Shown: positions 6,996 to 55,920, counted from the stretch's first letter. The stretch is 64,000 nucleotides of DNA from Dendronephthya gigantea (GCF_004324835.1 NW_021163190.1:191242-255241), one strand, 5' to 3'. Made by a program: numbers and translations. Notes: generated by a model not told the origin, from the letters alone.

Positions 6996-8618
6996 ATGGC
7001 TTCATATATACAAGGCTACGATAAAGAAAGGTTTGTCGACAAAATCAATCAAAATTTTCATTGCCAGATTTGCTTCAACGTCTTGAAAGAGCCGGTTATG
7101 TGTTCGAGAAACCAGCATTCTTTTTGCCGTTGTTGTATTACGAAACATCTGGAAAATTCTCAAACATGTCCAACGTGTGCTGATGAACTGACCGTAGAGA
7201 CTTTGATCGAACCACCGCGAATGGTTAAAGATTTTTTGAAAGAATCAAAAATTCGTTGCGTTTACATCGACAGAGGTTGTCAAGAAGTTGTAGAATTACA
7301 GCATCTTGACCGCCATGAAGATACATGTGGATATACACCAGCCGTTTGTACAAACCAAGGCTGTGGTTTAATTGTCAACAAGCGTGATCTTATTCACCAT
7401 GAAAGTGAAGTCTGTGAATTCCGAAAGTTGAAGTGTCACTCGTGCGGAGAAATAACGAAAACTTTGGCAGATATGGAGGAAAGAATGGCGAATATCGAGA
7501 AAAATAATGTAACAATTGAAACTAAAATAACAAATTTAGAGAAAAATATGGCGAGAAATACAACAGTCGCAGTCGCAGATTTAAAAGCAGATATGGAAGG
7601 AAAACACGAAGCGGTTAACAACGAAGTCAAAGGATTGAAAACAGCTTTGGTCAGAGCTTTTGATGAAATTAAGGACGTTCTTATCACGATGGAGGGCAAG
7701 ATAGAAGAAAACACAAGAAAAGTAAGAAATAGACCAAGTGGTGATAAGGAAAATATTATTGTTGCTGGAGGTTTTTTGACTAATTCTGTAGAGATGTTTA
7801 ACTGGCGTCAAAGAACATGGTCGCCATTACAATCAATGCCAAAGGATCGTTGGGGAGCGACTTCATTTATTTATAACAATCATATGACTATAGCTGGGGG
7901 TAGCTGTGCTGGGTCTGACATTGTTGATGACATGATTAGAATGAATATTGACCCAAACCCTGATCTCTCAACACAGTGGAGTGACTGTCCCGTTGAACTA
8001 CCTGATAAGTTGCAAAACCACAGCAGTGTGCTGTATAATGATCAGTTGATAGTCTCTGGAGGTGATTGCAAAAATGGTACATCTGACTTGATCGGATCAG
8101 CCCAGCTTGTTCCTCCCTATACTGTGAAGACCTTATCAAGAATGCCAGAACCAAGACAAGGTCACAGCATGGAAATATTTGATGATAATTTGGTGATAGT
8201 TGGTGGATTTTCAAATCGCCAATACAATGACATCCTCAGCAGTGGCATGCTGTACGGTATAAAGAAGAATGATCTGAAACAGTTATCACCACTGCCGTAT
8301 GAAGTGTGTGGTATGGCAACTGTGAGATGGGGAGACAACATTGTTGTTATTGGTGGCACTGATAATCATGGCAAGACATTAGATACAGTTATCATTTACA
8401 ATGTCAAGACAGGACAAAGTCACATGCTGCCATCAATGAGATGTAAGAGGAGGGGATGTACTGCAGTTGTTATTGAAAACAACATTGTAGTCCTGGGAGG
8501 GTGTGGTGAGGAAGGAGAGCTGAACTCAGTTGAAGGTTTCAACTTTGAAAGGTATTCTTGGGAAGAACTTCCAGAAATGTCTGAAGCAAGATGCTTGCAC
8601 AGTGCTGTTGTTGTGTGA
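6996..8618 (+). CDS. RING (C3HC4) - TRAF-type zinc finger - coiled coil - 6-blade Kelch propeller protein, 540 aa, intronless
   Basis: ORF track. RING: CQICFNVLKEPVMCSRNQHSFCRCCITKHLENSQTCPTC. zf-TRAF-like Cys/His spacing: CVYIDRGCQEVVELQHLDRHEDTCGYTPAVCTNQGCGLIVNKRDLIHHESEVCEFRKLKCHSCGE. Six GG-doublet blades: IIVAGG, MTIAGG, LIVSGG, LVIVGG, IVVIGG, IVVLGG. TGA stop followed by AATAAA-like signals. Confidence 0.85.
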   Translation: MASYIQGYDKERFVDKINQNFHCQICFNVLKEPVMCSRNQHSFCRCCITKHLENSQTCPTCADELTVETLIEPPRMVKDFLKESKIRCVYIDRGCQEVVELQHLDRHEDTCGYTPAVCTNQGCGLIVNKRDLIHHESEVCEFRKLKCHSCGEITKTLADMEERMANIEKNNVTIETKITNLEKNMARNTTVAVADLKADMEGKHEAVNNEVKGLKTALVRAFDEIKDVLITMEGKIEENTRKVRNRPSGDKENIIVAGGFLTNSVEMFNWRQRTWSPLQSMPKDRWGATSFIYNNHMTIAGGSCAGSDIVDDMIRMNIDPNPDLSTQWSDCPVELPDKLQNHSSVLYNDQLIVSGGDCKNGTSDLIGSAQLVPPYTVKTLSRMPEPRQGHSMEIFDDNLVIVGGFSNRQYNDILSSGMLYGIKKNDLKQLSPLPYEVCGMATVRWGDNIVVIGGTDNHGKTLDTVIIYNVKTGQSHMLPSMRCKRRGCTAVVIENNIVVLGGCGEEGELNSVEGFNFERYSWEELPEMSEARCLHSAVVV

Positions 8619-13210: not shown

Positions 13211-14815
13211 ATGGCTTCATATATACAAGGCTACGATGAAGAAAGGTTTGTGGACAAAATCAATCAAAATTTTCATTGCCAGATTTGCTTCAACGTCTTG
13301 AAAGAGCCGGTTATGTGTTCGAGAAACCAGCATTCTTTTTGCCGTTGTTGTATTACGACACATCTGGAAAATTCTCAAACATGTCCAACGTGTGCTGATG
13401 AACTGACCGTAGAGACTTTGATTGAACCACCGCGAATGGTTAAAGATTTTTTGAATGAATCAAAAATTCGTTGCATTTACATCGACAGAGGTTGTCAAGA
13501 AGTTGTAGAATTACAGCATCTTGACCGCCATGAAGATACATGTGGATATACACCAGCCGTTTGTACAAACCAAGGCTGTGGTTTAATTGTCAACAAGCGT
13601 GATCTTATTCACCATGAAAGTGAAGTCTGTGAATTCCGAAAGTTGAAGTGTCACTCGTGCAGAGAAATGACGAAAACTTTGCCAGATATAGAGGAAAGAA
13701 TGGCGAAGAATAATGTGACAATTGAAACAAAAATAACAAATTTAGAGAGGAATATGGCAAAAAATACCGCAGATATAAAAGCAGATATGGAAGGAAAACT
13801 CGAAGCGGTTAACAACAAAGTCGATGGATTGAAAACAGCTTTGGTCAGAGCTTTTGATGAAATGAAGGACGTTCTTATCACGATGGAGGGCAAGATAGAA
13901 GAAAACACAAGAAAAGTAAGAAATAGACCAAGTGGTGATAAGGAAAATATAATCGTTGCTGGAGGTTTAGGAATTAACTCTGTAGAGATGTTTAACTGGC
14001 GTCAAAGAACATGGTCGCCATTACAATCAATGCCAGAGGATCGTTATGGAGCGACTTCATTTATTTATAACAATCATATGACTATAGCTGGGGGTTGCTG
14101 TGGTGTTTGGTTTGTCATTGTTGATGATATGATTAGAATGAATATTGACCCAAACCCTGATCTCTCAACACACTGGAGTAACTGTCCTGTTAAACTACCT
14201 GATAAGTTGAAAAACCACAGCAGTGTGCTGTATAATGATCAGTTGATAGTCTCTGGAGGTGATAATGGAAATGTTTCATCAGACTTGATCAAATCAGTCC
14301 AGCTTGTTCCTCCCTATACTGTGAAGACCTTATCAAGAATGCCAGAACCAAGACAATGTCACAGCATGGAAATATTTGATGATAATTTGTTGATAGTTGG
14401 TGGAAGTACAACTGGCCATCACAAAGACAATCTCAGCAGTGTCGTACTGTACAATATAAAGAAGAATGAGCTGAAACAGTTGTCACCACTGCCGTATGAA
14501 GTGAATGATATGGCGACTGTGAGATGGGGAGACAACATTGTTGTTATTGGTGGCGAAGACAAACAAAGTTATAAATTAGATACAGTTATCATTTACAATG
14601 TCAAGACAGAACAAAGTCACATGTTGCCATCAATGAGATGTAAGAGGTGGGGAAGTACTGGAGTTATTATTGAAAACAACATTGTAGTCCTGGGAGGGAG
14701 GGGTGAGGACGAATACCTGAAGTCAGTTGAAGGTTTCAACTTTGAAAGGTATTCTTGGGAAGAACTTCCAGAAATGTCTGAAGCAAGATACTTGCACACT
14801 GCTGTTGTTGTGTGA
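13211..14815 (+). CDS. RING-zfTRAF-CC-Kelch paralog, 534 aa
   Basis: ORF track; same architecture. Shorter coiled-coil module and variant GG-loops (IAGGCCGVWFVIVDD). Confidence 0.85.
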   Translation: MASYIQGYDEERFVDKINQNFHCQICFNVLKEPVMCSRNQHSFCRCCITTHLENSQTCPTCADELTVETLIEPPRMVKDFLNESKIRCIYIDRGCQEVVELQHLDRHEDTCGYTPAVCTNQGCGLIVNKRDLIHHESEVCEFRKLKCHSCREMTKTLPDIEERMAKNNVTIETKITNLERNMAKNTADIKADMEGKLEAVNNKVDGLKTALVRAFDEMKDVLITMEGKIEENTRKVRNRPSGDKENIIVAGGLGINSVEMFNWRQRTWSPLQSMPEDRYGATSFIYNNHMTIAGGCCGVWFVIVDDMIRMNIDPNPDLSTHWSNCPVKLPDKLKNHSSVLYNDQLIVSGGDNGNVSSDLIKSVQLVPPYTVKTLSRMPEPRQCHSMEIFDDNLLIVGGSTTGHHKDNLSSVVLYNIKKNELKQLSPLPYEVNDMATVRWGDNIVVIGGEDKQSYKLDTVIIYNVKTEQSHMLPSMRCKRWGSTGVIIENNIVVLGGRGEDEYLKSVEGFNFERYSWEELPEMSEARYLHTAVVV

Positions 14816-17664: not shown

Positions 17665-19308
17665 ATGGCTTCATATATACAAGGCTACGATGAAGAAAGG
17701 TTTGTGAACCAAATCGATCGAAATTTTCATTGTCAGATTTGCTTCAACGTCTTGAAAGAGCCGGTTATGTGTTCGAGAAACCAGCATTCTTTTTGCCTTT
17801 GCTGTATTACGAAACATCTGGAAAAATCTCAAACTTGTCCAACGTGTGCCGATGAACTGACCGTAGAGACTTTGGCCGAACCAAATAGAATGGTAAAAGA
17901 TTTTTTGAATGAATCAAAAATTCGTTGCGTTTACATGGACAGAGGTTGTCAAGAAGTTGTAGAATTACAGCATCTTGACCGCCATGAAGATACATGTGGA
18001 TATACACCAGCCGTTTGTACAAACCAAGGCTGTGGTTTAATTGTCAACAAGCGTGATCTTATTCACCATGAAAGTGAAGTCTGTGAATTCCGAAAGTTGA
18101 AGTGTCACTCGTGCGGAGAAATGACGAAAACTTTGGCAGATATGGAGGAAAGAATGGCGAATATCGAGAAGAATATGGTAACAAATAACATTGAAACTAA
18201 AATAACAAATTTAGAGAAAAATGTTGCCACTGTTGCGAATAATATGGAGAAAAACACGGCAGATTTAAAAGCAAATATAAAAGCAGATATGGAAGGAAAA
18301 CTCGAAGCGGTTAACAACAAAGTCGATGGATTGAAAACAGCTTTGGTCAGAGCTTTTGATGAAATAAAGGACGTTCTTATCACGATGGAGGGCAAGAAAG
18401 AAGAAAACACAAGAAAAGTAAGAAATAGACCAAGTGGTGATAAGGAAAATATAATTGTTGCTGGAGATGTAGTAACTAACTCTGTAGAGATGTTTAACTG
18501 GCGTCAAAGAACATGGTCGCCATTACAATCAATGCCAAAGGATCGTTTTGGAGCGACTTCATTTATTTATAACAATCATATGACTATAGCTGGGGGTTAC
18601 TGTGATGTCATTGTTGATGATATGATTAGAATGAATATTGACCCAAACCCTGATCTCTCAACACACTGGAGTGACTGTCCTGTTAAACTACCTGATAAGT
18701 TGAGATTCCACAGCAGTGTGCTGTATAATGATCAGTTGATGGTCTCTGGAGGTGATATTGAAAATGGTTCATCTGACTTGATCAGATCAGTCCAGCTTGT
18801 TCCTCCCTATACTGTGAAGACCTTATCAAGAATGCCAGAACCAAGACAAGGTCACAGCATGGAAATATTTGATGATAATTTAGTGATAGTTGGTGGAAGT
18901 ACAATTAGCAGTTACAAAGGCAACCTTAGCAGTGTCGTACTGTACGATATAAAGAAGAATGAGCTGAAACAGTTGTCACCACTGCAGTATGAAGTGAGTC
19001 ACATGGCAACTGTGAGATGGGGAGACAACATTGTTGTTATTGGTGGCGATGACAAACATGGCAAGACATTAGATACAGTTATCATTTACAATGTCAAGAC
19101 AGAACAAAGTCACATGTTGCCATCAATGAGATGTAAGAGGTGGGGATGTGCTGCAGTTGTTATTGAAAACAACATTGTAGTCCTGGGAGAGGATGGTGAG
19201 GAAGGAAACCTGAAGTCAGTTGAAGGTTTCAACTTTGAAAAGTATTTTTGGGAAGAACTTCCAGAAATGTCTGAAGCAAGATTGTGGCCCACTGCTGTTG
19301 TTGTGTGA
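17665..19308 (+). CDS. RING-zfTRAF-CC-Kelch paralog, 547 aa
   Basis: ORF track. Longest coiled-coil (extra IEKN/VATVANNMEKN modules). Last blade reads LGEDGEEG, not LGG. Confidence 0.8.
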   Translation: MASYIQGYDEERFVNQIDRNFHCQICFNVLKEPVMCSRNQHSFCLCCITKHLEKSQTCPTCADELTVETLAEPNRMVKDFLNESKIRCVYMDRGCQEVVELQHLDRHEDTCGYTPAVCTNQGCGLIVNKRDLIHHESEVCEFRKLKCHSCGEMTKTLADMEERMANIEKNMVTNNIETKITNLEKNVATVANNMEKNTADLKANIKADMEGKLEAVNNKVDGLKTALVRAFDEIKDVLITMEGKKEENTRKVRNRPSGDKENIIVAGDVVTNSVEMFNWRQRTWSPLQSMPKDRFGATSFIYNNHMTIAGGYCDVIVDDMIRMNIDPNPDLSTHWSDCPVKLPDKLRFHSSVLYNDQLMVSGGDIENGSSDLIRSVQLVPPYTVKTLSRMPEPRQGHSMEIFDDNLVIVGGSTISSYKGNLSSVVLYDIKKNELKQLSPLQYEVSHMATVRWGDNIVVIGGDDKHGKTLDTVIIYNVKTEQSHMLPSMRCKRWGCAAVVIENNIVVLGEDGEEGNLKSVEGFNFEKYFWEELPEMSEARLWPTAVVV

Positions 19309-22584: not shown

Positions 22585-24207
22585 ATGGCTTCATATATAC
22601 AAGGCTACGATGAAGAAAGGTTTGTGGACAAAATCAATCAAAATTTTCATTGTCAGATTTGCTTCAACGTCTTGAAAGAGCCGGTTATGTGTTCGAGAAA
22701 CCAGCATTCTTTTTGCCGTTGTTGTATTACGAAACATCTGGAAAATTCTCAAACATGCCCAACGTGTGCTGATGAACTGACCGTAGAGACTTTGGCCGAA
22801 GCACCGCGAATGGTTAAAGATTTCTTGAATGAATCGAAAATTCGTTGCGTTTACATCGACAGAGGTTGTCAAGAAGTTGTAGAATTACAGCATCTTGACC
22901 GCCATGAAAATACATGTGGATATACACCAGCCGTGTGTACAAACCAAGGCTGTGGTTTAATTGTCAACAAGCGTGATCTTATTCACCATGAAAGTGAAGT
23001 CTGTGAATTTCGAAAGTTGAAGTGTCACTCGTGCGGAGAAATAACCAAAACTTTGGCAGATATGGAGGAAAGAATGGCGAATATCGAGAATAATATCGAG
23101 AAGAATAATACAACAGTTGAAATTAAAATAACAAATTTAGACAGAAAAATAGACAAAAACACGGCAGATATAAAAGCGGATATGGAAGGAAAACACGAAG
23201 CGGTTAACAACAAAGTCGATGGATTGAAAACAGCTTTGGTCAAAGCTTTTAATGAAATAAAGGACGTTCTTATCACGATGGAGGGCAAGATAGAAGAAAA
23301 CACAAGAAAAGTAACAAATAGACCAAGTGGTGATAAGGAAAATATAATTGTTGCTGGAAGTTATGGAACTAACTCTGTAGAGATGTTTAACTGGCGTCAA
23401 AGAACATGGTCGCCATTACAATCAATGCCAGAGAATCGTTGTGGAGCGACTTCATTTATTTATAACAATCATATGACTATAGCTGGGGGTTGGTGTGGTG
23501 GGTCTGGCATTGTTGATGATATGATTAGAATGAATATTGACCCAAACCCTGATCTCTCAACAGACTGGAGTGACTGTCCTGTTAAACTACCTGATAAATT
23601 AATATTCCACAGCAGTGTGGTGTATAATGATGAGTTGATAGTCTCTGGAGGTGATAATGGAAATGGTTCATCTGACTTGATCAGAGCAGTCCAGCTTGTT
23701 CCTCCCTATACTGTGAAGACCTTATCAAGAATGCCAGAACCAAGACAATGTCACAGCATGGAAATATTTGATGATAATTTGTTGATAGTTGGTGGAAGTA
23801 CAATTAGCAGTTACAAAGGCAACCTTACCAGTGTCGTACTGTACGATATAAAGAAGAATGAGCTGAAACAGTTGTCACCACTACCGTATGAAGTGAGTCA
23901 CATGGCAACTGTGAGATGGGGAGACAACATTGTTGTTATTGGTGGTATTGACAAACATGGCAAGTTATTAGATAAAGTTATCATTTACAATGTGAAGACA
24001 GAACAAAGTCACATGCTGCCATCAATGAGATGTAAGAGGTGGGGATGTACTGCAGTTGTTATTGAAAACAACATTGTAGTCCTGGGAGGGGAGAGTGAGC
24101 AAGCAATGCAAACGTCAGTTGAAGGTTTCAACTTTGAAAGGTATTCTTGGGAAGAACTTCCAGAATTGTCTGAAGCAAAATGGATACACACTGCTGTTGT
24201 TGTGTGA
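22585..24207 (+). CDS. RING-zfTRAF-CC-Kelch paralog, 540 aa
   Basis: ORF track; same architecture; loop variants IAGGWCGGSGIVDD and LGGESEQAMQTSVEG. Confidence 0.85.
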   Translation: MASYIQGYDEERFVDKINQNFHCQICFNVLKEPVMCSRNQHSFCRCCITKHLENSQTCPTCADELTVETLAEAPRMVKDFLNESKIRCVYIDRGCQEVVELQHLDRHENTCGYTPAVCTNQGCGLIVNKRDLIHHESEVCEFRKLKCHSCGEITKTLADMEERMANIENNIEKNNTTVEIKITNLDRKIDKNTADIKADMEGKHEAVNNKVDGLKTALVKAFNEIKDVLITMEGKIEENTRKVTNRPSGDKENIIVAGSYGTNSVEMFNWRQRTWSPLQSMPENRCGATSFIYNNHMTIAGGWCGGSGIVDDMIRMNIDPNPDLSTDWSDCPVKLPDKLIFHSSVVYNDELIVSGGDNGNGSSDLIRAVQLVPPYTVKTLSRMPEPRQCHSMEIFDDNLLIVGGSTISSYKGNLTSVVLYDIKKNELKQLSPLPYEVSHMATVRWGDNIVVIGGIDKHGKLLDKVIIYNVKTEQSHMLPSMRCKRWGCTAVVIENNIVVLGGESEQAMQTSVEGFNFERYSWEELPELSEAKWIHTAVVV

Positions 24208-27401: not shown

Positions 27402-28519
27402 ATTTCGCTAGAAAAGCTCGTGTATTTCCTTGCAATTGAGAGAAAATAATTCAAAATATTTTGCTTCAAAACGAAAGTTTGGAAAAGAAATGTTTGAAAA
27501 TTGAAAGTTTAAAACGACGGTTGCTTCCACTTACCAAAACAAACTTCCTCTTTTTCCCTTGAAATTTCACTCCCTAGCAGTTTTCTGATCTCTTGGAACA
27601 CTGGAATGTTCAGCGTTTTCTATGTTGGCAATCAATATAATTCCAGAGATTAGGTTAGGATTAGGGTTAAATTTAGGATTAGGTTTAACCCTATTTAACA
27701 ATAAACATAGGACCTAATCTTAACCCAAATCGTAACATAATCTCAAATAACAAATAATAAATTAGTCTGACGGATAGTTTTTTTAACTCATTAACTGCCA
27801 AAACAAACTTCCTCTTTTTTCCTTGAAATTTCACTCCCTTGCAGTTTTCTGATCTCTTGGAACACTGGAATGTTTAGCGTTTTCGAAGTTGACAATCAAT
27901 ATAATTCCATTTAATCCTTAAGATTAGGTTAGGATTAGGGTTAAAATTAGGAATGAGTCTCACCCTATTAAACTATAAACCTAAAACATAATCTTAACCC
28001 AATTCCTAAGATAATCCCAAAGATTAAATTCGTGTATTTAGGATTTAGTGAACATGGAGTTTTATATTAAAAACTATCGCAGCATCGTCAGCACTTTTGA
28101 AAGTGTAAATTCGCATTTTAATAGAACAAGTTAAAGCTTTTAGAGTCGACTTAAATTACTGCAAAATAACATTTCTCTAAAATCTACTGAAAATATCAGA
28201 AAAAGGTTTCATTTGGCTCCAGCTCTCTCCGTCAGCTCGTAACATTTTCAAATTCATTTTTGGAAACACCGCATCAAATTCCAGGAATTCCTGAGTCCTG
28301 ACAGGAGAGGACGCGTCTTATGCAAATACTTTATAAGGAAAAGATATTTGTCTTCATAAACTGATCATTTTGGAGAAGATTTCGAGAAAATACAAACACC
28401 GACTTCTCCAAGAACGAACACTGTATCTATATTTCAGTCTATACAGCGAGGTTTATACTACAGAGCGACAACACAACACAGAACTTGCTTTATTATTACG
28501 ACACAAGAACGACGTAAAT

Positions 28520-30157
28520 ATGGCTTCATATATACAAGGTTACGATGAAGAAAGGTTTGTGGACAAAATAAATCAAAATTTTCATTGTCAGATTTGCTTC
28601 AACGTCTTGAAAGAGCCGGTTATGTGTTCGAGAAACCAGCATTCTTTTTGCCGTTGTTGTATTACGAAACATCTGGAAAATTCTCAAACATGCCCAACGT
28701 GTGCTGATAAACTGACCGTAGAGACTTTGGCCGAACCTTCACGAATGGTAAAAGATTTTTTAAATGAATCAAAAATTCGTTGCGTTTACATCGACAGAGG
28801 TTGTCAAGAAGTTGTAGAAGTGCAGCATCTTGACCGCCATGAAGATACATGTGGATATACACCAGCCGTTTGTACAAACCAAGGCTGTGGTTTAATTGTC
28901 AACAAGCGTGATCTTATTCACCATGAAAGTGAAGTCTGTGAATTCCGAAAGTTGAAGTGTCACTCCTGCGGAGAAATAACGAAAACCTTGGCAGATATGG
29001 ACGAAAGAATGGCGAATATGGAAAAGAACATAGGGAAGGAATAGTATAACAATTGAAACTAAAATAACAAATTTAGAGCGAAATGTTGCACGGAATATCG
29101 AGAAAAACACGGCAGATATAAAAAGCAGATATGGAAGGAAAACACGAAGCGGTTAACAACAAAGTCGATGGATTGAAAACAGCTTTGGTCAGAGCTTTTG
29201 ATGAATGAAGGACGTTTTTATCACGATGGAGGGCAAGAAAGAAGAAAAACAAGAAAAGTAGGAAATAGACCAAGTGGTGATAAGGAAAATATAATTGTTG
29301 CTGGTGGAGGTTTTTTGAATGAGTCTGTAGAGATGTTTAACTGGCGTCAAAGAACATGGTCGCCATTACAATCAATGCCAAAGGATCGTTGGGGAGCGAC
29401 TTCATTTATTTATAACAATGATATGACTATAGCTGGGGGTTTCTGTGGTTTGTCTGGCATTGTTGATGATATGATTAGAATGAATATTGACCCAAACCCT
29501 GATCTCTCAACACACTGGAGTGACTGTCCTGTTAAACTACCTGATAAGTTGAAATACCACAGCAGTGTGCTGTATAATGATCAGTTGATAGTCTCTGGAG
29601 GTGATAATGAAAATGTTTCATCTGACCTGATCAGAGCAGTCCAGCTTGTTCCTCCCTATACTGTGAAGACCTTATCAAGAATGCCAGAACCAAGGCATGG
29701 TCACAGCATGGAATTATTTGATGATAATTTGTTGATAGTTGGTGGAACTACAACTGGCTATACCAAAGACAACCTTAGCAGTGTCACGCTGTATGATATT
29801 AAGAAGAATGAGTTGAAACAGTTGTCACCACTGCCGTATGAAGTGAGTCACATGGCAACTGTGAGATGGGGAGACAACATTGTTGTTATTGGTGGTGATG
29901 ACAAACATGGCAAGACATTAGATACAGTTATCATTTACAATGTCAAAACAGAACAAAGTCACATGCTGCCATCAATGAGATGTAAGAGGTGGGGATGTAC
30001 TGCAGTTGTTATTGAAAACAACATTGTAGTCCTGGGAGGATCTGGTGAGCAAGGAAAGATGAAGTCAGTTGAAGGTTTCAACTTTGAAAGGTATTCTTGG
30101 GAAGAACTTCCAGAAATGTCTGAAGCAAGATACTGGCACACTGCTGTTGTTGTGTGA
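28520..30157 (+). pseudogene. RING-zfTRAF-CC-Kelch paralog disabled by several indels in the coiled-coil region (~29030-29230); Kelch half still reads as an ORF
   Basis: ORF splits into 28370..29044 and 29198..30157. Versus other copies: atagggaaggaatagtataacaattg instead of ..aataatgtaacaattg, and tgatgaatgaaggacgttttta missing bases. The RING/TRAF part and the Kelch part are in different frames. Confidence 0.7.
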
Positions 30158-32841: not shown

Positions 32842-34467
32842 ATGGCTTCATATATACAAGGCTACGACGAAGAAAGGTTTGTGGACAAAATCAATCAAAA
32901 TTTTCATTGCCAGATTTGCTTCAACGTCTTGAAAGAGCCGGTTATGTGTTCGAGAAACCAGCATTCTTTTTGCCGTTGTTGTATTACGAAACATCTGGAA
33001 AATTCTCAAACATGCCCAACGTGTGCTGATGAACTGACCGTAGAGACTTTGATCGAACCACCGCGAATGGTTAAAGATTTTTTGAATGAATCAAAAATTC
33101 GTTGCGTTTACATCGACAGAGGTTGTCAAGAAGTTGTAGAATTACAGCATCTTGACCGCCATGAAGATACATGTGGATATACACCAGCCGTTTGTACAAA
33201 CCAAGGCTGTGGTTTAATTGTCAACAAGCGTGATCTTATTCGCCATGAAAGTGAAGTCTGTGAATTCCGAAAGTTGAAGTGTCACTCGTGCGGAGAAATA
33301 ACGAAAACTTTGGCAGATATGGAGGAAAGAATGGCGAATATCGAGAAGAATAATGTAACAATTGAAACTAAAATAACAAATTTGGAGAAAAACGTTGCCA
33401 CTGTTGCAAATATCGAGAAAAACACGGCAGACTTAAAAGCGAATATGGAAGGAAAACACGAAGCGGTTAACAACGAAGTCAAAGGATTGAAAACAGCTTT
33501 GGTCAGAGCTTTTGATGAAATAAAGGACGTTCTTATCACGATGGAGGGCAAGAAAGAAGAAAACACAAGAAAAGTAATAAATAGACCAAGTGGTGATAAG
33601 GAAAATATAATTGTTGCTGGAGGTTATTTGACTAACTCTGTAGAGATGTTTAACTGGCGTCAAAGAACATGGTTGCCATTACAATCAATGCCAGAGAAAC
33701 GTTATGGAGCGACTTCATTTATTTACAACAATCATATGACTATAGCTGGGGGTTGCTGTTTTCCTAACATTGTTGATGATATGATTAGAATGAATATTGA
33801 CCCAAACCCTGATCTCTCAACACACTGGAGTGACTGTCCTGATAAACTACCTGATAAGTCGAGATTCTACAGCAGTGTGCTGTATAATGATCAGTTGATA
33901 GTCTCTGGAGGTGAAGAGAGAAACGATTCATCTGACTTGATCAGAGCAGTCCAGCTTGTTCCTCCCTATACTGTGAAGACCTTATCAAGAATGCCAGAAC
34001 CAAGACAATGTCACAGCATGGAAATATTTGATGATAATTTGTTGATAGTTGGTGGAAGAACAACTCACAGACACACAGACAACCTCAGCAGTGTCGTACT
34101 GTACGATATAAAGAAGAATGAGCTGAAACAGTTGTCACCACTACCGTATGAAGTGAGTCTCATGGCAACTGTGAGATGGGGAGACAACATTGTTGTTATT
34201 GGTGGCATTGACAAACATGCCAAGACATTAGATACAGTTATCATTTACAATGTCAAGACAGAACAAAGTCACATGCTGCCATCAATGAGACGGAAAAGGA
34301 GGGGATGTACTGCAGTTGTTATTGAAAACAACATTGTAGTCCTTGGAGGGTTTGGTGAGCGACGAGAGCTGAAGTTAGTTGAAGGTTTCAACTTTGAAAG
34401 GTATTCTTGGGAAGAGCTTCCAGAAATGTCTGAAGCAAGATACTGGCACACTGCTGTTGTTGTGTGA
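32842..34467 (+). CDS. RING-zfTRAF-CC-Kelch paralog, 541 aa
   Basis: ORF track; same architecture; loops IAGGCCFPNIVDD, SGGEERNDSSD, LGGFGERRELKLVEG. Confidence 0.85.
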   Translation: MASYIQGYDEERFVDKINQNFHCQICFNVLKEPVMCSRNQHSFCRCCITKHLENSQTCPTCADELTVETLIEPPRMVKDFLNESKIRCVYIDRGCQEVVELQHLDRHEDTCGYTPAVCTNQGCGLIVNKRDLIRHESEVCEFRKLKCHSCGEITKTLADMEERMANIEKNNVTIETKITNLEKNVATVANIEKNTADLKANMEGKHEAVNNEVKGLKTALVRAFDEIKDVLITMEGKKEENTRKVINRPSGDKENIIVAGGYLTNSVEMFNWRQRTWLPLQSMPEKRYGATSFIYNNHMTIAGGCCFPNIVDDMIRMNIDPNPDLSTHWSDCPDKLPDKSRFYSSVLYNDQLIVSGGEERNDSSDLIRAVQLVPPYTVKTLSRMPEPRQCHSMEIFDDNLLIVGGRTTHRHTDNLSSVVLYDIKKNELKQLSPLPYEVSLMATVRWGDNIVVIGGIDKHAKTLDTVIIYNVKTEQSHMLPSMRRKRRGCTAVVIENNIVVLGGFGERRELKLVEGFNFERYSWEELPEMSEARYWHTAVVV

Positions 34468-40245: not shown

Positions 40246-40397
40246 ATGGCTTCATATATACAAGGCTACGATGAAGAAAGGTTTGTGAACCAAATCGATC
40301 GAAATTTTCATTGTCAGATTTGCTTCAACGTCTTGAAAGAGCCGGTTATGTGTTCGAGAAACCAGCATTCTTTTTGCCGTTGTTGTATTACGAAACA
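40246..40397 (+). pseudogene. 5' fragment (Met1..CCITKH) of a RING-zfTRAF-CC-Kelch copy, cut off by a transposon insertion
   Basis: MASYIQGYDEERFVNQIDRNFHCQICFNVLKEPVMCSRNQHSFCRCCITKH, then non-homologous GAATAC-rich sequence. The gene resumes at 43943. Confidence 0.8.
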
Positions 40398-43300
40398 CTG
40401 CATGAAAAACCGCGTATTCACAGGTGAATACGTGCGAATATGAGTTCGAATATGGTCCATATTCACACGTATTCACAGATATTCACTGTGAATATCCTCG
40501 GAATATTGGGGGTATTCCGATGTGAATACCTGTGAATAAAACACACCGCGTATTCTGACCTAGAATACCTTCGAATACTCTGTGAATATTTTTCAAGACC
40601 TAGTATTCACACTTCGGCATAGAAAATGTGATTGTACGCATGAATACTGGATAATCAACGAGTTATATTGTGTAAATATTGCAGGAAATGCGTTTATATA
40701 CCACGGAATAGGCAATTAAAGGTTGTTTCAGTTCAATGCCGGTGTCAACTGTTATCCAGCATTTCTTCTCATCACGGTCACAAATTGAAATTGCACTTGA
40801 TTTGTTTAGGCGACAGACAATAAATGTTACCAAACGCACGATGATTTTTATTTGATTAATTTTTTTGCTGCCGCAGGGATGTCGAGTATCGTATATCCTC
40901 AGTCGATGAGCGCTGAGTAGCCTCGTAAGTCGTAAAAAAGCTGTATAAAAAGAGAAATATCCATCAATTTCTTTTATTACCTGTGTAAAAGAAGTTATAT
41001 ATAAAAAAAATACTTTTATTTTTGCTTGGATACGTAAACACATGGGTAGAAAGTTGATGATTCTGTATCGTCAAAAGCATCCGTAATATAAACAGTTCAG
41101 TGTTGGGAAATCGTAGGAAATTTCCTTTGGGAAATTTCCTCTTCGACATGTTAGTGACAATTTTTGCGCCAAGGAATTGCGGCGAAATTGCGAATAAATG
41201 GCGAAATTCGGAGGTCGTATAACAATAACAAATAAATGTCTTTAAATGATTCCTCGCAAAAGTTGTCCAGTTCCCTTTGTTTACAAAACGATAACATGGC
41301 ACAAATGTCAATTGGTTTCAACCAGGGCGCTTATATATAAATGCGTGGTTTCAACAGAAGTTCAAGCTGTTCAACTTTGAATTGTTAAAGATGTTCGCGA
41401 TGCCCCAAAATAATTCTTGTGGCGGCGCTAAAATCAGGTAAGTTATTTAATAATAACAAGAGTTATGTCATACTATAGTCCTGAAACAACACAACACAAC
41501 AACAATAGTGCGAGGCCAACGCTTTTACGGCTGGGCTCATCACTTTTTTTGTTTTTATTAATATAAATAGATTACGATTGTGTTTATTGTAGCTAATTTG
41601 TACACAGCTAACTGTACCTGCTTGTAGATAAATAAATTGTATGATGGTTTTCATCAATCCTACCTCCATCACACACTAATTATAGTAGGTACAAATGTTT
41701 GCCATTTCAAAGCCATACTCAATACAAACAAAATTTAAAAGTTTGCCAATACTGAAAAGGGACATTACTTTCTTACCTACCACAAATATTCAGAAAGCTG
41801 CTGTAATCATAACTTTAACATAACATAACCCTTAGATAGACGTTTCAAGATGCATTGAAATGAGGTGCATTGGTACATTTCATGAGGGTTTTTTATATTT
41901 TAGGCAAAATTTATATATTATAGATATATATTGTTATATAATTGTCACAGAATAGCTAATGATTGATTGCCAAAAGATTGAAATCTTAACAATCAGCTGC
42001 CCAAAGACAGAAATCTTAACAGCTTAGAAATCAAAGCCAGACTGTGTTTTTTAGTTATATATAATACATATTTTTTAACAAAATAATGGCCTATATTTTT
42101 CCTTTTAGCATATATGAATTATATTTAAACTAATATTTACCACAGAATAGCTATTGAACTGGTTGCCAAAAGATAGGAATCTTAACAACCAGCTGCCCAA
42201 AGACAGAAATCTTAACAGCTTAGAAGTTCATGCTAGACTGTGTTTTTAAGTGAAGCCTTTTAACATTGCCCTCATCATAATTTATAACTGAGACTGTTTA
42301 CTGATTTGTACATATACATTCTCCTAGGAATATTATAATTTCATTACACTGCATAAAATCTATGCACAACAATAAAAACAAATGGCCATGCATGCAACAT
42401 CAGCTTTTACCATTATCATTAACCTTTCGGATAATAATCTATTATAGCTTAAGAAAGTTTGCTATGTATTTTGTTCAATAATTGCTTTAAGGTGGTTTTA
42501 ATTGTTTTTAGCCATCAGGGGTTGCAAGATTGAGAAAATTCCCAAAAGAGTTGGCCTTAACTTTGCTAAAGATGAAGAGGATTTTTCACCCAGTGAAAGA
42601 AGTTCCTGATTCATTATCTGCTCACCTATAGTTTTTAATATCTTACCAAGTGAAAAAACATCACTTGCTTTGCTCAACAATTTACTATTAAGTATAATTT
42701 CTGACATACTCCAGGAGCAATGTGTTTCATATAATACTAAAACAACATTGCTTATAAATTAAACAATCAGCTGATGAAAGATTGAAAATCATAACAGCTT
42801 AGTAGAAGTTCATGATAGGCTGTGTTTTTGCTACATATTTTGAACAATTTGTGATGTTCCAATAATATTTTTATAAAATGTGAAATGTTGTAACCCATCA
42901 CATGTACATGTGATCTGTTAAGGACTGTATAAAATTTAAATAATTGACTGAAATCTTAGTATTGCATTTGATCAACCTTGATAAAACACATTAACTGTGG
43001 ATAAACCTACCATTGCAATGTGTATGACTGCTATGCAAATTAACATGGCAACCTAAAGATTATGCATGTTGTTCATATTGATATTTTCCTTAATGGACAG
43101 ACTTGAGGGACAATAAATGCCTAAACATTCGCACAGGCTGCGAACGCATAACCCATTAACCTCTTATCACCAGGTAATTTGTTAATAAAATGTTGAGATT
43201 ACTCCCAACATGGTCATCGGGTATAGTCTATAGACCGGCTATTGAATTCAACTGCACGATATTTAGTCACTCACCGAAGAGGTCCCTTACGCACAAACAG

Positions 43301-43942
43301 TATATGCGTTTTCGGTTTTGAACAATAAAAAATCCTTGAAATACGGTTAATATTCGTTATCATTTTACACGTATTAGCGAACATAAGGTGCTGTAGCAAT
43401 CGCGCCATGCAATCTCATTTCTATTTCGCGCATTTTCTTCATCAGACTTCGTGGGAATCGTAGCATACAAATACTCGCCGGCATGCTCTTTAACTGCGAC
43501 CAGAGTTTCCAGACTTTACCAAGCCCTTGGCATCCTTCACTCTCTTCCCTTATTTGTAAGCGCCAAAAAGATTTCTTACAGCCACAAACGCACGATCTCC
43601 TCGTTCAATGTTTATTAAACTCGAAAGCGCGCTTTTTGGTTTTTGCGCCAAATTATTTATAAAATTCCACTTCAATTTTTCAGCATTCAAAATAAAGTTT
43701 AAAAATGTCAGCTGATGAATTTATTTTGTGGAAACACGGATTAAGTGAGAAGTGAGATATTCCAAGTGTGAATATTGGTCAGAATACGCGGCATATTCAC
43801 GGCGTATTCACACTTAGAATACTGAAGAATACGATGCCGTATTCACACTAATATTCCATGTCGGAATACGCTTGCAATATGTGTTTTATTCACACCCGTA
43901 TTCACATGTGAATACCTTGGAATACGGCGCTTTTCATGCAGT
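40398..43942. mobile_element. ~3.5-kb non-autonomous TIR DNA transposon inserted in the RING-coding part of a Kelch gene copy; TSD GAAACA (6 bp, possibly a degenerate 8 bp)
   Basis: Termini CTGCATGAAAAACCGCGTATTC ... GGCGCTTTTCATGCAGT are inverted. Dense subterminal GAATAC/GTATTC repeats at both ends. Host sequence GAAACA present on both sides (40392-40397 and 43943-43948). Internal ~85-bp repeats near 41940 and 42130. No transposase-like ORF. Confidence 0.75.
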
Positions 43943-45422
43943 GAAACATCTGGAAAATTCTCAAACATGCCCAACGTGTGCTGATGAACTGACCGTAGAG
44001 ACTTTGGCCGAAGCACCGCGAATGGTAAAAGATTTCCTGAATGAATCAAAAATTCGTTGCGTTTACATCGACAAAGGTTGTCAAGAAGTTGTAGAATTAC
44101 AGCATCTTGACCGCCATGAAGATACATGTGGATATACACCAACCGTTTGTACAAACCAAGGCTGTGGTTTAATTGTCAACAAGCGTGATCTTATTCACCA
44201 TGAAAGTGAAGTCTGTGAATTCCGAAAGTTGAAGTGTCACTCGTGCGGAGAAATAACGAAAACTTTGGCAGATATGGAGGAAAGAATGGCGAATATCGAG
44301 AAGAATATCGAGAAGAATAATACAACAGTTGAAATTAAAATAAGAAATTTAGACAGAAAAATAGACAAAAACACGGCAGATATAAAAGCAGATATGGAAG
44401 GAAAACACGAAGCGGTTAACAACGAAGTCAGAGGATTGAAAACAGCTTTGGTCAGAGCTTTTGATGAAATGAAGGACGTTCTTATCACGATGGAGGCCAA
44501 GAAAAAAGAAAACATAGCAAAGGTAATAAATAGACCAAGTGGTGATAAGGAAAATATAATTGTTGCTGGAGGTATAGGAATTAACTCTGTAGAGATGTTT
44601 AACTGGCGTCAAAGAACATGGTCGCCATTACAATCAATGCCAGAGGGTCGTTATGCAGCGACTTCATTTATTTATAACAATCATATGACTATAGCTGGGG
44701 GTAGCTGTCGTGGTTTTTCTGGCATTGTTGATGATATGATTAGAATGAATATTGACCCAAACCCTGATCTCTCAACACACTGGAGTGACTGTCCTGTTAA
44801 ACTACCTGATAAGTTGAATAACCACAGGAGTGTGCTGTATAATGATCAGTTGATAGTCTCTGGAGGTGATAATGAAAATGGTTCATCTGACTTGATCAGT
44901 TCAGTCCAGCTTGTTCCTCCCTATACTGTGAAGACCTTATCAAGAATGCCAGAACCAAGAAAATATTACAGCATGGAAATATTTGATGATAATTTGTTGA
45001 TACTTGGTGGAAGAACAACTGGCAGTGCCAAAGACAGCCTCAGCAGTGTCGTACTGTACGATATAAAGAAGAATGAGCTGAAACAGTTGTCACCACTACC
45101 GTATGAAGTGAGTCACATGGCAACTGTGAGATGGGGAGACAACATCGTTGTTATTGGTGGTGCTGACAAACATGGCAAGTTAATAAATACAGTTATCATG
45201 TACAATTTCAAGACAGAACAAAGTCACATGCTGCCATTAATGATATGTAAGAGAAGTGCATGTACCGCAGTTGTTATTGAAAACAACATTGTAGTCCTGG
45301 GAGGGTGTGGTGAGCAAGGAGAGCTGAAGTCAGTTCAAGGTTTCAACTTTGAAAGGTATTCTTGGGAAGAACTTCCAGAAATGTCTAAAGCAAGATACTG
45401 GCACACTGCTGTTGTTGTGTGA
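43943..45422 (+). pseudogene. 3' portion (LENSQTCPTC...TAVVV*) of the same transposon-disrupted RING-zfTRAF-CC-Kelch copy
   Basis: ORF 43872..45422 becomes homologous to the family exactly at HLENSQ after the duplicated GAAACA. The remainder is a complete zfTRAF-CC-Kelch reading frame. Confidence 0.8.
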
Positions 45423-50570: not shown

Positions 50571-52211
50571 ATGGCTTCATATATACAAGGCTACGATGAA
50601 GAAAGGTTTGTGAACAAAATCGATCGAAATTTTCATTGCCAGATTTGCTTCAACGTTTTGAAAGAGCCGGTTATGTGTTCGAGAAACCAGCATTCTTTTT
50701 GCCGTTGTTGTATTACGAAACATCTGGAAAATTCTCAAACATGCCCAACGGTGCTGATGACTGACCGTAGAGACTTTGACCGAACCTTCACGATGGTAAA
50801 AGATTTTTTAAATGAATCGAAAATTCGTTGCGTTTACATCGACAGAGGTTGTCAAGAAGTTGTAGAATTACAGCATCTTGACCGTCATGAAGATACATGT
50901 GGATATACACCAGCCGTTTGTACAAACCAAGGCTGTGGTTTAATTGTCAACAAGCGTGATCTTATTCACCATGAAAGTGAAGTCTGTGAATTCCGAAAGT
51001 TGAAGTGTCACTCGTGCGGAGAAATAACGAAAACTTTGGCAGAAATGCAGGAAAGAATGGCGAATATCGAGAAGAATATGGTAACAAATAAAACAGTTGA
51101 AACTAAAATAACAAATTTAGAGAAAAATGTTGCCACTGTTGCGAATAATATGGAGAAAAACACGGCAGATATAAAAGCAGATATGGAAGGAAAACACGAA
51201 GCGGTTAACAACGAAGTCAAAGGATTGAAAACAGCTTTGGTCAGAGCTTTTGATGAAATGAAGGACGTTCTTATCACCATGGAGGGCAAAAAAGAAGAAA
51301 ACACAAGAAAACTAATAAATAGACCAAGTGGTGATAAGGAAAATATAATTGTTGCTGGAGGTGGTTGGTCTAACTCTGTGGAGATGTTTAACTGGCGTCA
51401 AAGAACATGGTCGCCATTACAATCAATGCCAAAGGATCGTTCTGGAGCGACTTCATTTATCTATAACAATCATGTGACTATAGCTGGGGGTTGCTGTGAT
51501 GTTTGGTCTGGGATTCTTGATGATATGATTAGAATGAATATTGACCCAAACCCTGATCTCTCAACACACTGGAGTGACTGTCCTGTTAAACTACCTGATA
51601 AGTTGAGATACCACAGCAGTGTGCTGTATAATGATCAGTTGATAGTCTCTGGAGGTGATAATGGAAATGGTTTATCTGACTTGATCAGTTCAGTCCAGCT
51701 TGTTCCTCCCTATACTGTGAAGACCTTATCAAGAATGCCAGAACCAAGACAAGGTCACACCATGGAAATATTTGATGATAATTTGTTGATAGTTGGTGGA
51801 ACTGCAACTGGCGGATGCAAAGACAACCTCAGCAGTGTCGTACTGTTCAATATAAAGAAGAATGAGCTGAAACAGTTGTCACCACTGCCGTATGAAGTGA
51901 GTGATATGGCAACTGTGAGATGGGGAGACAACATTGTTGTTATTGGTGGCGCTGACAAACATGCCAAGCCATTAGATACAGTTATCATTTACAATGTCAA
52001 GACAGAACAAAGTCACATGCTGCCATCAATGAGATGTAAGAGGAGGGGATGTACTGCAGTTGTTATTGAAAACAACATTGTAGTCCCGGGAGGGGATGGT
52101 GAGCGACGAGAGCTGAAGTCAGTTGAAGGTTTCAACTTTGAAAGGTATTCTTGGGAAGAACTTCCAGAAATGTCTGAGGCAAGATGGCTGCACACTGCTG
52201 TTGTTGTGTGA
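50571..52211 (+). CDS. RING-zfTRAF-CC-Kelch paralog, 546 aa; three separate 1-bp deletions (net -3) destroy the end of the RING (CPTCADELTVETLAEPSRM becomes CPTVLMTDRRDFDRTFTM)
   Basis: Alignment against copy at 28680-28750: ccaacgtgtgctgatgaactgacc vs ccaacggtgctgatgactgacc, and cacgaatggtaaaag vs cacgatggtaaaag. The rest of the ORF is intact. Confidence 0.7.
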   Translation: MASYIQGYDEERFVNKIDRNFHCQICFNVLKEPVMCSRNQHSFCRCCITKHLENSQTCPTVLMTDRRDFDRTFTMVKDFLNESKIRCVYIDRGCQEVVELQHLDRHEDTCGYTPAVCTNQGCGLIVNKRDLIHHESEVCEFRKLKCHSCGEITKTLAEMQERMANIEKNMVTNKTVETKITNLEKNVATVANNMEKNTADIKADMEGKHEAVNNEVKGLKTALVRAFDEMKDVLITMEGKKEENTRKLINRPSGDKENIIVAGGGWSNSVEMFNWRQRTWSPLQSMPKDRSGATSFIYNNHVTIAGGCCDVWSGILDDMIRMNIDPNPDLSTHWSDCPVKLPDKLRYHSSVLYNDQLIVSGGDNGNGLSDLISSVQLVPPYTVKTLSRMPEPRQGHTMEIFDDNLLIVGGTATGGCKDNLSSVVLFNIKKNELKQLSPLPYEVSDMATVRWGDNIVVIGGADKHAKPLDTVIIYNVKTEQSHMLPSMRCKRRGCTAVVIENNIVVPGGDGERRELKSVEGFNFERYSWEELPEMSEARWLHTAVVV

Positions 52212-55261: not shown

Positions 55262-55339
55262 CTGCGTGGCCCATCATCACAACCCCAGTAATTTGCAATC
55301 ATTGTGAGATCAAAGTAGAATGAGGGTACTTTAGTTTTC
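55262..55339 (-). CDS. AGXT: AGXT-like exon 5 ([26 protein letters not shown])
   Basis: Matches [25 protein letters not shown]. Acceptor atccag|, donor CAG|gtgaga. Confidence 0.7.
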
Positions 55340-55920
55340 CTGGATTGCAATTTCTTCCTAGAAATATCAGAAATATCTTTCTCAGGTAGTTCTGACACAA
55401 ACCATGACAGCTTATTGTAGAATACTACCTACACTGGACCACCAGGTTTGAGATATCTTGCTCAGGTAGTTCAGACACAAACCACGACAGCTTATGTAGA
55501 ATACTACCTACACTGGACCACCACATTTGAGATATTTTTCTCAGGTAAATCAGACACAAACCACGACAGCTTATTGTAGAATACTGCCTACACTGGAACA
55601 CCACATTTGAAATATCTTTCTCAGGTAGTTCAGGCACAAACCAGGATAGCTTATTGTAGAATACTACCTACACTGAACCACCACGTTTGAGATATCTTTC
55701 TCAGGTAGTTCAGACACAAACCAGGATAGCTTATTGTAGAATACTACCTACACTGAACCACCACGTTTGAGATATCTTTCTCAGGTAGTTCAGGCACAAA
55801 CCACGACAGCTTATTGTAGAATACTACCTACACTGGACCACCACATTTGAGATATCTTAATTATCTTTCTCAGGTAGTTCAGACACAAACCACTACAGCT
55901 TATTGTAGAATACTACAGTA
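55330..55920. repeat. ~80-bp tandem repeat, ~7 units (in AGXT-like intron 4)
   Basis: ctcaggtagtt recurs at 55381, 55461, 55540. Confidence 0.85.

Follow-up and report, generated by a model that had tools for sequence, protein, structure and literature searches.

Transposons of the CACTA-Mirage-Chapaev (CMC) superfamily are characterized by target-site duplications (TSDs) of 3-4 bp and by invariable 5'-CAC...GTG-3' ends (PMC4079192). Those of the CACTA branch have a terminal inverted repeat (TIR) of 13 bp, a 3-bp TSD, and asymmetric subterminal regions of direct and inverted repeats, which fold into stem-loops to which TNPA-type proteins bind (PMC2613891). Here we describe an element with features of this kind in a stretch of 64,000 nucleotides from the octocoral Dendronephthya gigantea (hereafter the window, in whose coordinates all positions are given), where one copy of a tandemly repeated gene coding for a RING-kelch protein is interrupted by foreign DNA. 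Judged by its ends and repeats, the inserted sequence, at 40396-43943, is probably a non-coding cut-and-paste transposon, internally deleted or otherwise, of the CACTA/EnSpm branch of CMC.

The element resembles maize En/Spm and its dSpm/I derivatives in several respects: a 13-bp TIR of the form CACT-CA-GAAAA (11/13 positions identical), a flanking duplication of 3 bp (here in the preferred reading), subterminal regions of ~200-300 bp carrying a short motif in direct and inverted orientation and capable of forming hairpins, the existence of non-autonomous derivatives without transposase genes, and termini that can be read as splice sites (TTTTC.TG.AG/TG, the slash marking the junction). It differs from En/Spm in residing in an animal and not in a plant, in the fifth base of the terminus (G instead of A, CACTG), and in the repeated motif, which is (T)GTGAATAY here and a 12-bp TnpA box in maize; no tnpA/tnpD remnant was detected in it. 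With the animal CMC elements in Repbase (EnSpm and Chapaev; Hydra EnSpm-N families and Chapaev3), to which it is likened by their description (PMC4079192), it shares the CAC...GTG termini and, in the preferred reading of the junction, a TSD of 3-4 bp. Chapaev3 inserts at TWA flanked by A and T, whereas the AAA found here is flanked by G and C, and the Hydra 'Spongebob'/TRC-type elements, which start with CCC and have 2-bp TSDs, are unlike it. This is an ordinary mobile-element insertion and not an unexpected one; cnidarians were already known to carry CMC elements (Hydra EnSpm-4N1_HM).

Insertion site and ends of the element

The plus strand of the window contains a tandem array of ~9 intronless genes, each with a product of ~540 amino acids in which a RING finger, a TRAF/Sina-type zinc finger, a coiled coil, and a kelch propeller follow one another. 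A tblastn search with the reconstructed protein located one of these genes in two pieces (40246-40398 and 43944-45419), while its paralogues at 6996, 13211, 17665, 22585, 28520, 32842, and 50571 are continuous at the insertion point. The empty site, ATTACGAAACATCTGG, is found in the paralogues at 6996, 17665, 22585, 28520, 32842, and 50571, and differs by one base in the copy at 13211 (ACGACACAT). In the filled site, ATTACGAAACA and GAAACATCTGG enclose an insert running CTGCATG...CATGCAGT, with edges CTGCATGAAAA...TTTTCATGCAGT, so that ~3.55 kb of extra DNA lies exactly at the point defined by the empty site. When the insert and one copy of the duplication were removed, an open reading frame (ORF) of 541 codons was restored in the same register as in the paralogues. 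A first reading of this DNA, made from the sequence alone (the sequence-only reading), had described a non-autonomous TIR (class II) transposon within the RING-coding exon; the paralogue-defined insertion point, the perfect TIR, and the missing coding capacity bear this out. The features of the locus are as follows:

40246-40395, plus strand: 5' part of the host gene, codons 1-50, with most of the RING finger, ending with the left target copy (tblastn 100% over amino acids 1-51; paralogue alignment).
40393-40395, no strand: left TSD, taken as AAA (preferred 3-bp reading); at most, GAAACA at 40392-40397 could be duplicated (empty versus filled site).
40396-40408, plus strand: left TIR, CACTGCATGAAAA, 13 bp (repeat finder; exact matches only at the ends; 11/13 identical to En1).
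40409-40647, no strand: left subterminal region with 17 (T)GTGAATAY in both orientations and the palindrome GTATTCACAGGTGAATAC at 40414-40431 (motif table, spacing; hairpin z = -5.9).
40421-40429, plus strand: candidate 5' splice site CAG/GTGAAT inside the element (sequence inspection, in-frame test).
40441-40443, plus strand: TGA, first in-frame stop on read-through into the element, giving a product of 65 amino acids (ORF 40246-40443).
40648-43756, no strand: AT-rich non-coding interior, 34% GC, with only 3 GAATAY (repeat, motif, domain, and protein searches).
43757-43925, no strand: right subterminal region with 13 (T)GTGAATAY in both orientations and the palindrome GTATTCACATGTGAATAC at 43898-43915 (motif table; hairpin z = -3.9).
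43931-43943, minus strand: right TIR, TTTTCATGCAGTG on the plus strand (repeat finder; exact matches).
43944-43946, no strand: right TSD, AAA in the preferred reading (empty versus filled site).
43947-45422, plus strand: 3' part of the host gene, codons 51-541 (43947-45419) and the stop codon (45420-45422), with the end of the RING finger, the TRAF/Sina-type zinc finger, the coiled coil, and the kelch propeller (tblastn 100% over amino acids 50-541, frame intact).

The TIR is perfect over 13/13 bp (CACTGCATGAAAA), the arms delimited by the repeat finder beginning at 40396 and finishing at 43943, and its only two exact matches in the window are those at the two ends of the element. Accordingly delimited, the element measures 3548 bp, opens with 5'-CAC (CACTG at 40396), closes with GTG-3' (CAGTG, 43943), and is flanked by AAA on either side; this CAC...GTG register is the sole one that yields the full 13-bp perfect TIR. 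The inverted termini seen in the sequence-only reading are therefore real, but two bases longer than stated, and its interval of 40398-43942, although literally bounded by GAAACA on both sides, has to be moved to 40396-43943. Beyond the TIR, inverted similarity drops to 69-71% over ~170 bp and is made of the repeated motif. Matches to the TIR with two mismatches elsewhere in the window (CACAGCATGGAAA) were discarded, as they correspond to a conserved stretch of kelch codons in the paralogues.

Any substring of GAAACA is permitted by the junction as the duplication, with a maximum of 6 bp, and only two readings give symmetric ends: AAA (CACTG...CAGTG, 13-bp TIR) and GAAAC (ACTGC...GCAGT, 12-bp TIR). 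The 6-bp TSD proposed earlier leaves the ends asymmetric and one base out of register (5'-CTGCATG versus ACTGCATG), with a T unpaired, and was abandoned. From the sequence of this single copy, which the symmetric 5-bp GAAAC also fits, a 3-bp TSD (AAA) is the simplest and most parsimonious reading.

The ends are further distinguished by their repeats. Exact GAATAC/GTATTC hexamers, whose enrichment had been pointed out before, occur nine times in the first 250 bp and nine times in the last 250 bp, with none in the interior, against a background mean of 0.19 and maximum of 3 in 1199 windows of 250 bp. The degenerate form GAATAY gave 16 copies in the first and 13 in the last 250 bp (background 0.6 per 250 bp, maximum 4; 5000 shuffles, mean 0.4, maximum 4-5). 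The underlying unit is longer than the hexamer: a 9-bp (T)GTGAATAY that occurs in both orientations, with 17 copies in the outer 252 bp on the left and 13 in the outer 187 bp on the right. Neighbouring copies are mostly 10-13 bp apart, about one helical turn, the first lies 19 nt from each terminus, and near each end two of them form the tail-to-tail palindrome GTATTCACA(G/T)GTGAATAC. Hairpin folding of both subterminal regions is well beyond that of shuffled sequences (z = -5.9 on the left and -3.9 on the right). Such dense arrays at both ends resemble protein-binding sites, in agreement with what the hexamers alone had suggested, and we regard them as putative ones. A sub-threshold Rfam match to mir-76 (27 bits versus a gathering score of 75) was rejected as an effect of the motif hairpin. 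Elsewhere in the window, GAATAC is locally in excess only at 55300-55900, where ~9 tandem units of ~60 bp (…cttattgtagaatactacctacactggaccaccac…) occur; this tandem repeat is unrelated to the element and was rejected as a related sequence.

Placement among the cut-and-paste superfamilies

The TIR was compared with those of En1, Tpn1, Tam1, and Cs1 (PMC3193017 Table 2). It has the same length as that of maize En1/Tpn1, CACTACAAGAAAA, and is identical to it at 11/13 positions, and to those of Tam1 and sorghum Cs1 at 10/13. By an arithmetic estimate, a random 13-mer would reach 11/13 with one given sequence with a probability of ~1e-5. The element has the 5'-CAC...GTG-3' termini of CMC elements (CACTG/CAGTG), a TIR of the expected length of ~13 bp resembling CACTACAAGAAAA, and subterminal motif arrays in direct and inverted orientation (17 and 13 copies). 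A TSD of 2-4 bp is expected for CMC, and of 3 bp for CACTA; AAA/AAA abut CAC...GTG here, at a single junction that also fits GAAAC and GAAACA. The superfamily had been left open in the sequence-only reading, and the CAC...GTG ends, the AAA flanks, and the 13-bp TIR now point to CACTA/CMC.

Affinity to hAT, Mutator, or P elements, which had been suggested on account of the subterminal repeats, requires duplications of 7-11 bp, and the junction allows 6 bp at most. Members of hAT have an 8-bp TSD and ends of the type YAG/YARNG; the 8-mers flanking the ends as earlier defined differ from each other (ACGAAACA versus TGAAACAT). Mutator/MULE elements have TSDs of 8-11 bp and TIRs of ~100-200 bp, and P elements TSDs of 7-8 bp and a TIR of 31 bp; with a largest duplication of 6 bp and a perfect TIR of only 13 bp, both were rejected. 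Transib elements combine CAC... termini with a 5-bp TSD, but a start at CAC leaves CGAAA/AAACA as 5-bp flanks here, and the GAAAC reading forces ACTGC ends. PIF/Harbinger elements duplicate 3 bp of consensus TWA, and the duplication found is AAA.

Several points weigh against the CMC placement. It is a structural one, and both mobility and TSD length rest on one junction of one copy, which also fits the symmetric 5-bp GAAAC and the asymmetric 6-bp reading. For the duplication to look 6 bp long under the 3-bp model, three bases have to be identical by chance (~1 in 64). Subterminal repeats are also carried by hAT, P, and Mutator elements. The TIR was compared with plant termini, and with two mismatches to En1 it falls outside the strict Repbase rule for non-autonomous elements (positions 1-11, at most one mismatch) when judged against the plant references.

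A rival reading is a non-autonomous transposon of some other superfamily with a 5- or 6-bp TSD, such as an unusual short-TSD lineage of hAT or an undescribed family, with ends ACTGC...GCAGT or CTGCATG...CATGCAGT. The flanks do share up to 6 bp (GAAACA), and the 5-bp GAAAC reading is perfectly symmetric. Moreover, the element has in common with Ac/Ds (hAT) a short TIR with an ...ATGAAA end and dense subterminal hexamer repeats, which are typical of Ac/Ds and bound there by the transposase; the inner TIR, ...ATGAAAA, is loosely like the ...GATGAAA of the Ac/Ds TIR. Nevertheless, an 8-bp duplication as in hAT is impossible at this junction, where it reaches at most 6 bp, the 6-bp reading is asymmetric, and the symmetric ends start with CAC and not with YAG/YARNG. 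If the element belonged elsewhere, its CAC...GTG ends, its TIR length of 13 bp, and its agreement with En1 at 11/13 positions would all become coincidence, and the ~1e-5 chance of that match far outweighs the ~1-in-64 coincidence behind the apparent 6-bp duplication. We consider this origin unlikely and retain the CACTA/CMC placement.

Candidate splice sites and the host gene

Read-through from the host gene into the element meets the TGA at 40441-40443 after 65 amino acids, so that, unless splicing removes the element, this gene copy is knocked out. Splicing would make the element a spliceosomal intron at present, as dSpm is in maize A2 and bz alleles, and would be compatible with its being a transposon. 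The candidate donor matches the MAG/GTRAGT consensus at 8/9 positions and derives from the first motif palindrome, and a plausible 3' splice site, the candidate acceptor at 43941, is formed on the sense strand by the right TIR (TTTTCATGCAG/TG). Use of this best-consensus pair, 40424 to 43941, would remove all but 33 nt in frame and without stops. The predicted product, of 552 amino acids, would be longer by 11 residues (HCMKNRVFTVK), placed in the RING-finger loop that joins zinc ligands six and seven (C6-C7). This loop, usually quoted at 4-48 residues in RING fingers, would grow from 10 to 21 residues and stay inside the usual range. A precedent is offered by En/Spm, whose termini contain splice sites that turn dSpm into an intron of A2 (Menssen et al. 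1990, as cited in PMC4219821). No additional decay was seen in the host ORF.

Against splicing, GT...AG is present in none of the seven registers by which the original mRNA would be regained, so precise removal is impossible, and the 33-nt remnant would put an extra Cys and an extra His into a zinc-binding domain. The proposal was drawn from the sequence, in a family whose other members are all intronless, and a recent insertion explains the intact frame equally well. Present-day function as an intron seems unlikely. An introner-like element, which splicing would remove precisely along with one TSD copy and of which genes would contain many near-identical copies, was rejected on the same grounds (0/7 restoring registers with GT...AG, and 33 nt left by the best splice pair). 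There is a slim chance that the CACTA terminus, together with the donor in the first GTGAATAC repeat, constituted a ready-made intron, by which one member of an intronless and rapidly evolving E3-ligase family would have gained a 3.5-kb intron and an 11-residue RING-loop insertion in one step. If true, the spliced element would parallel in an animal the dSpm-as-intron alleles of maize, and CMC elements could seed cnidarian introns by this route.

The nearest database proteins to those of the array are 69-74% identical, the named ones being 'RING finger 151-like' and 'E3 ubiquitin ligase NRDP1' of the octocoral Paramuricea clavata. The RING-kelch family is very large in octocoral assemblies, with 1444 matches among 8000 candidates scored. 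Differences among the tandem paralogues (6996-8618, 13211-14815, 17665-19308, 22585-24207, 32842-34467, 40246-45422, and 50571-52211) are mostly amino-acid changes. In the kelch half, pairwise Nei-Gojobori ratios of non-synonymous to synonymous divergence (dN/dS) were 0.94-2.02, exceeding 1 in 20/21 pairs, and in the half comprising the RING finger, zinc finger, and coiled coil they were 0.13-0.64; dS between paralogues was only 0.05-0.11. This pattern suggests that the propeller has been under diversifying selection in an E3-ligase-like family that expanded recently. Two paralogues, at 28370-30157 and 50571-52211, appear damaged without any transposon: the copy at 28520 is broken into two ORFs, and in that at 50571 two 1-bp deletions (CPTVLMTDRRDF... 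versus CPTCADELTVETL...) removed the last Cys pair of the RING finger while an ORF of 546 amino acids was kept. A homologue of the host gene in the assembly of a related octocoral adjoins a Ty3/Gypsy-type retrotransposon with protease, reverse transcriptase-RNase H, and integrase (locus L004, 3432-8446), so these gene arrays sit among many transposons.

Coding capacity, further copies and origin of the insertion

The longest ORFs in the element have 126 and 115 amino acids. A six-frame Pfam scan of the element at E<=1 gave no domain, and its concatenated ORFs of at least 38 amino acids found no relative among 5.8 billion proteins at E<=10. The absence of a transposase ORF reported in the sequence-only reading was thus confirmed and, the element having no recognisable coding capacity, we infer, as had been anticipated there, that an autonomous partner must exist elsewhere. 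The interior contains two direct repeats of ~119 bp, at 41938-42055 and 42133-42251, which are separated by 196 bp and share 87% identity; part of a third copy lies at 42762-42829. Either a satellite internal to the element or a nested short repeat may account for them. Also in the interior, at 41330-41445 on the plus strand, a TATATATAAA box is followed ~50 bp on by ATGTTCGCGATGCCCCAAAATAATTCTTGTGGCGGCGCTAAAATCAG/GTAAGT, resembling a promoter and a short first exon with a consensus donor. This segment, for which the protein search with the element ORFs found no homologue, may have been left over from the transcription unit of the parent element.

Other copies were sought in several places. 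A blastn comparison of the element with the window gave only self-matches and trivial matches of 24-34 bp. The metagenome, viral, and prokaryote collections searched do not include the source genome and are silent on copy number there. In them, the pattern CACTGCATGAAAANNNNCGTATTC had 0 matches in metagenome and viral contigs, and a relaxed pattern with variable gaps had 67 matches in metagenomes and 34 in prokaryote genomes, which equals the chance expectation; the loci so retrieved (L005-L105) have no motif array, with at most 5 motifs per 250 bp versus 13-17 in the element. Four related octocoral loci around homologues of the host gene (85 kb) showed no TIR, motif cluster, or blastn similarity. 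That no second copy turned up in the window, these octocoral loci, or the public collections would be expected of one-off filler DNA from repair or rearrangement, or of an assembly artefact, but this is very improbable, since repair or misassembly does not yield a perfect 13-bp TIR exactly at the breakpoints, a direct duplication of the flanks, and arrays of the motif placed symmetrically at the two ends but missing from the interior, and the negative searches are uninformative in collections without the source genome.

For the CACTA/CMC element, the steps of insertion are inferred by analogy with En/Spm. A DDE transposase of the CMC type, supplied in trans by an autonomous relative, would recognise and cleave the CAC...GTG termini. 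A sequence-specific binding activity, perhaps provided by an accessory protein of the TnpA kind or by a transposase domain, would occupy the GTGAATAY arrays, whose spacing of ~11 bp places them on one face of the helix, and would pair both ends. The excised element would then have integrated at a 3-bp staggered cut, giving rise to the AAA duplication.

The insertion appears to be fairly recent, an age in keeping with TIRs and a duplication that are both perfect and with a host frame that is intact. It would postdate the duplication that made the host copy, which has a dS of 0.058 to its nearest paralogue (22585). Dating by decay of the host copy was uninformative, as its private substitutions (5 synonymous and 27 non-synonymous) do not set it apart from the range seen among the other copies. 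That the TIRs and the duplication are perfect further suggests recent activity of the element family, in which case the autonomous partner may still function.

For annotation, these results mean that the gene copy should be flagged as transposon-disrupted and not as intron-containing, and the ends of the element and the GTGAATAY motif can be used as a seed for a repeat library of the source genome. The element provides a clean anthozoan example of En/Spm-like ends, in which a 13-bp CACT.CA.GAAAA TIR is accompanied by arrays of putative binding sites spaced by a helical turn, and it illustrates the conservation of the CACTA terminus between plants and animals.

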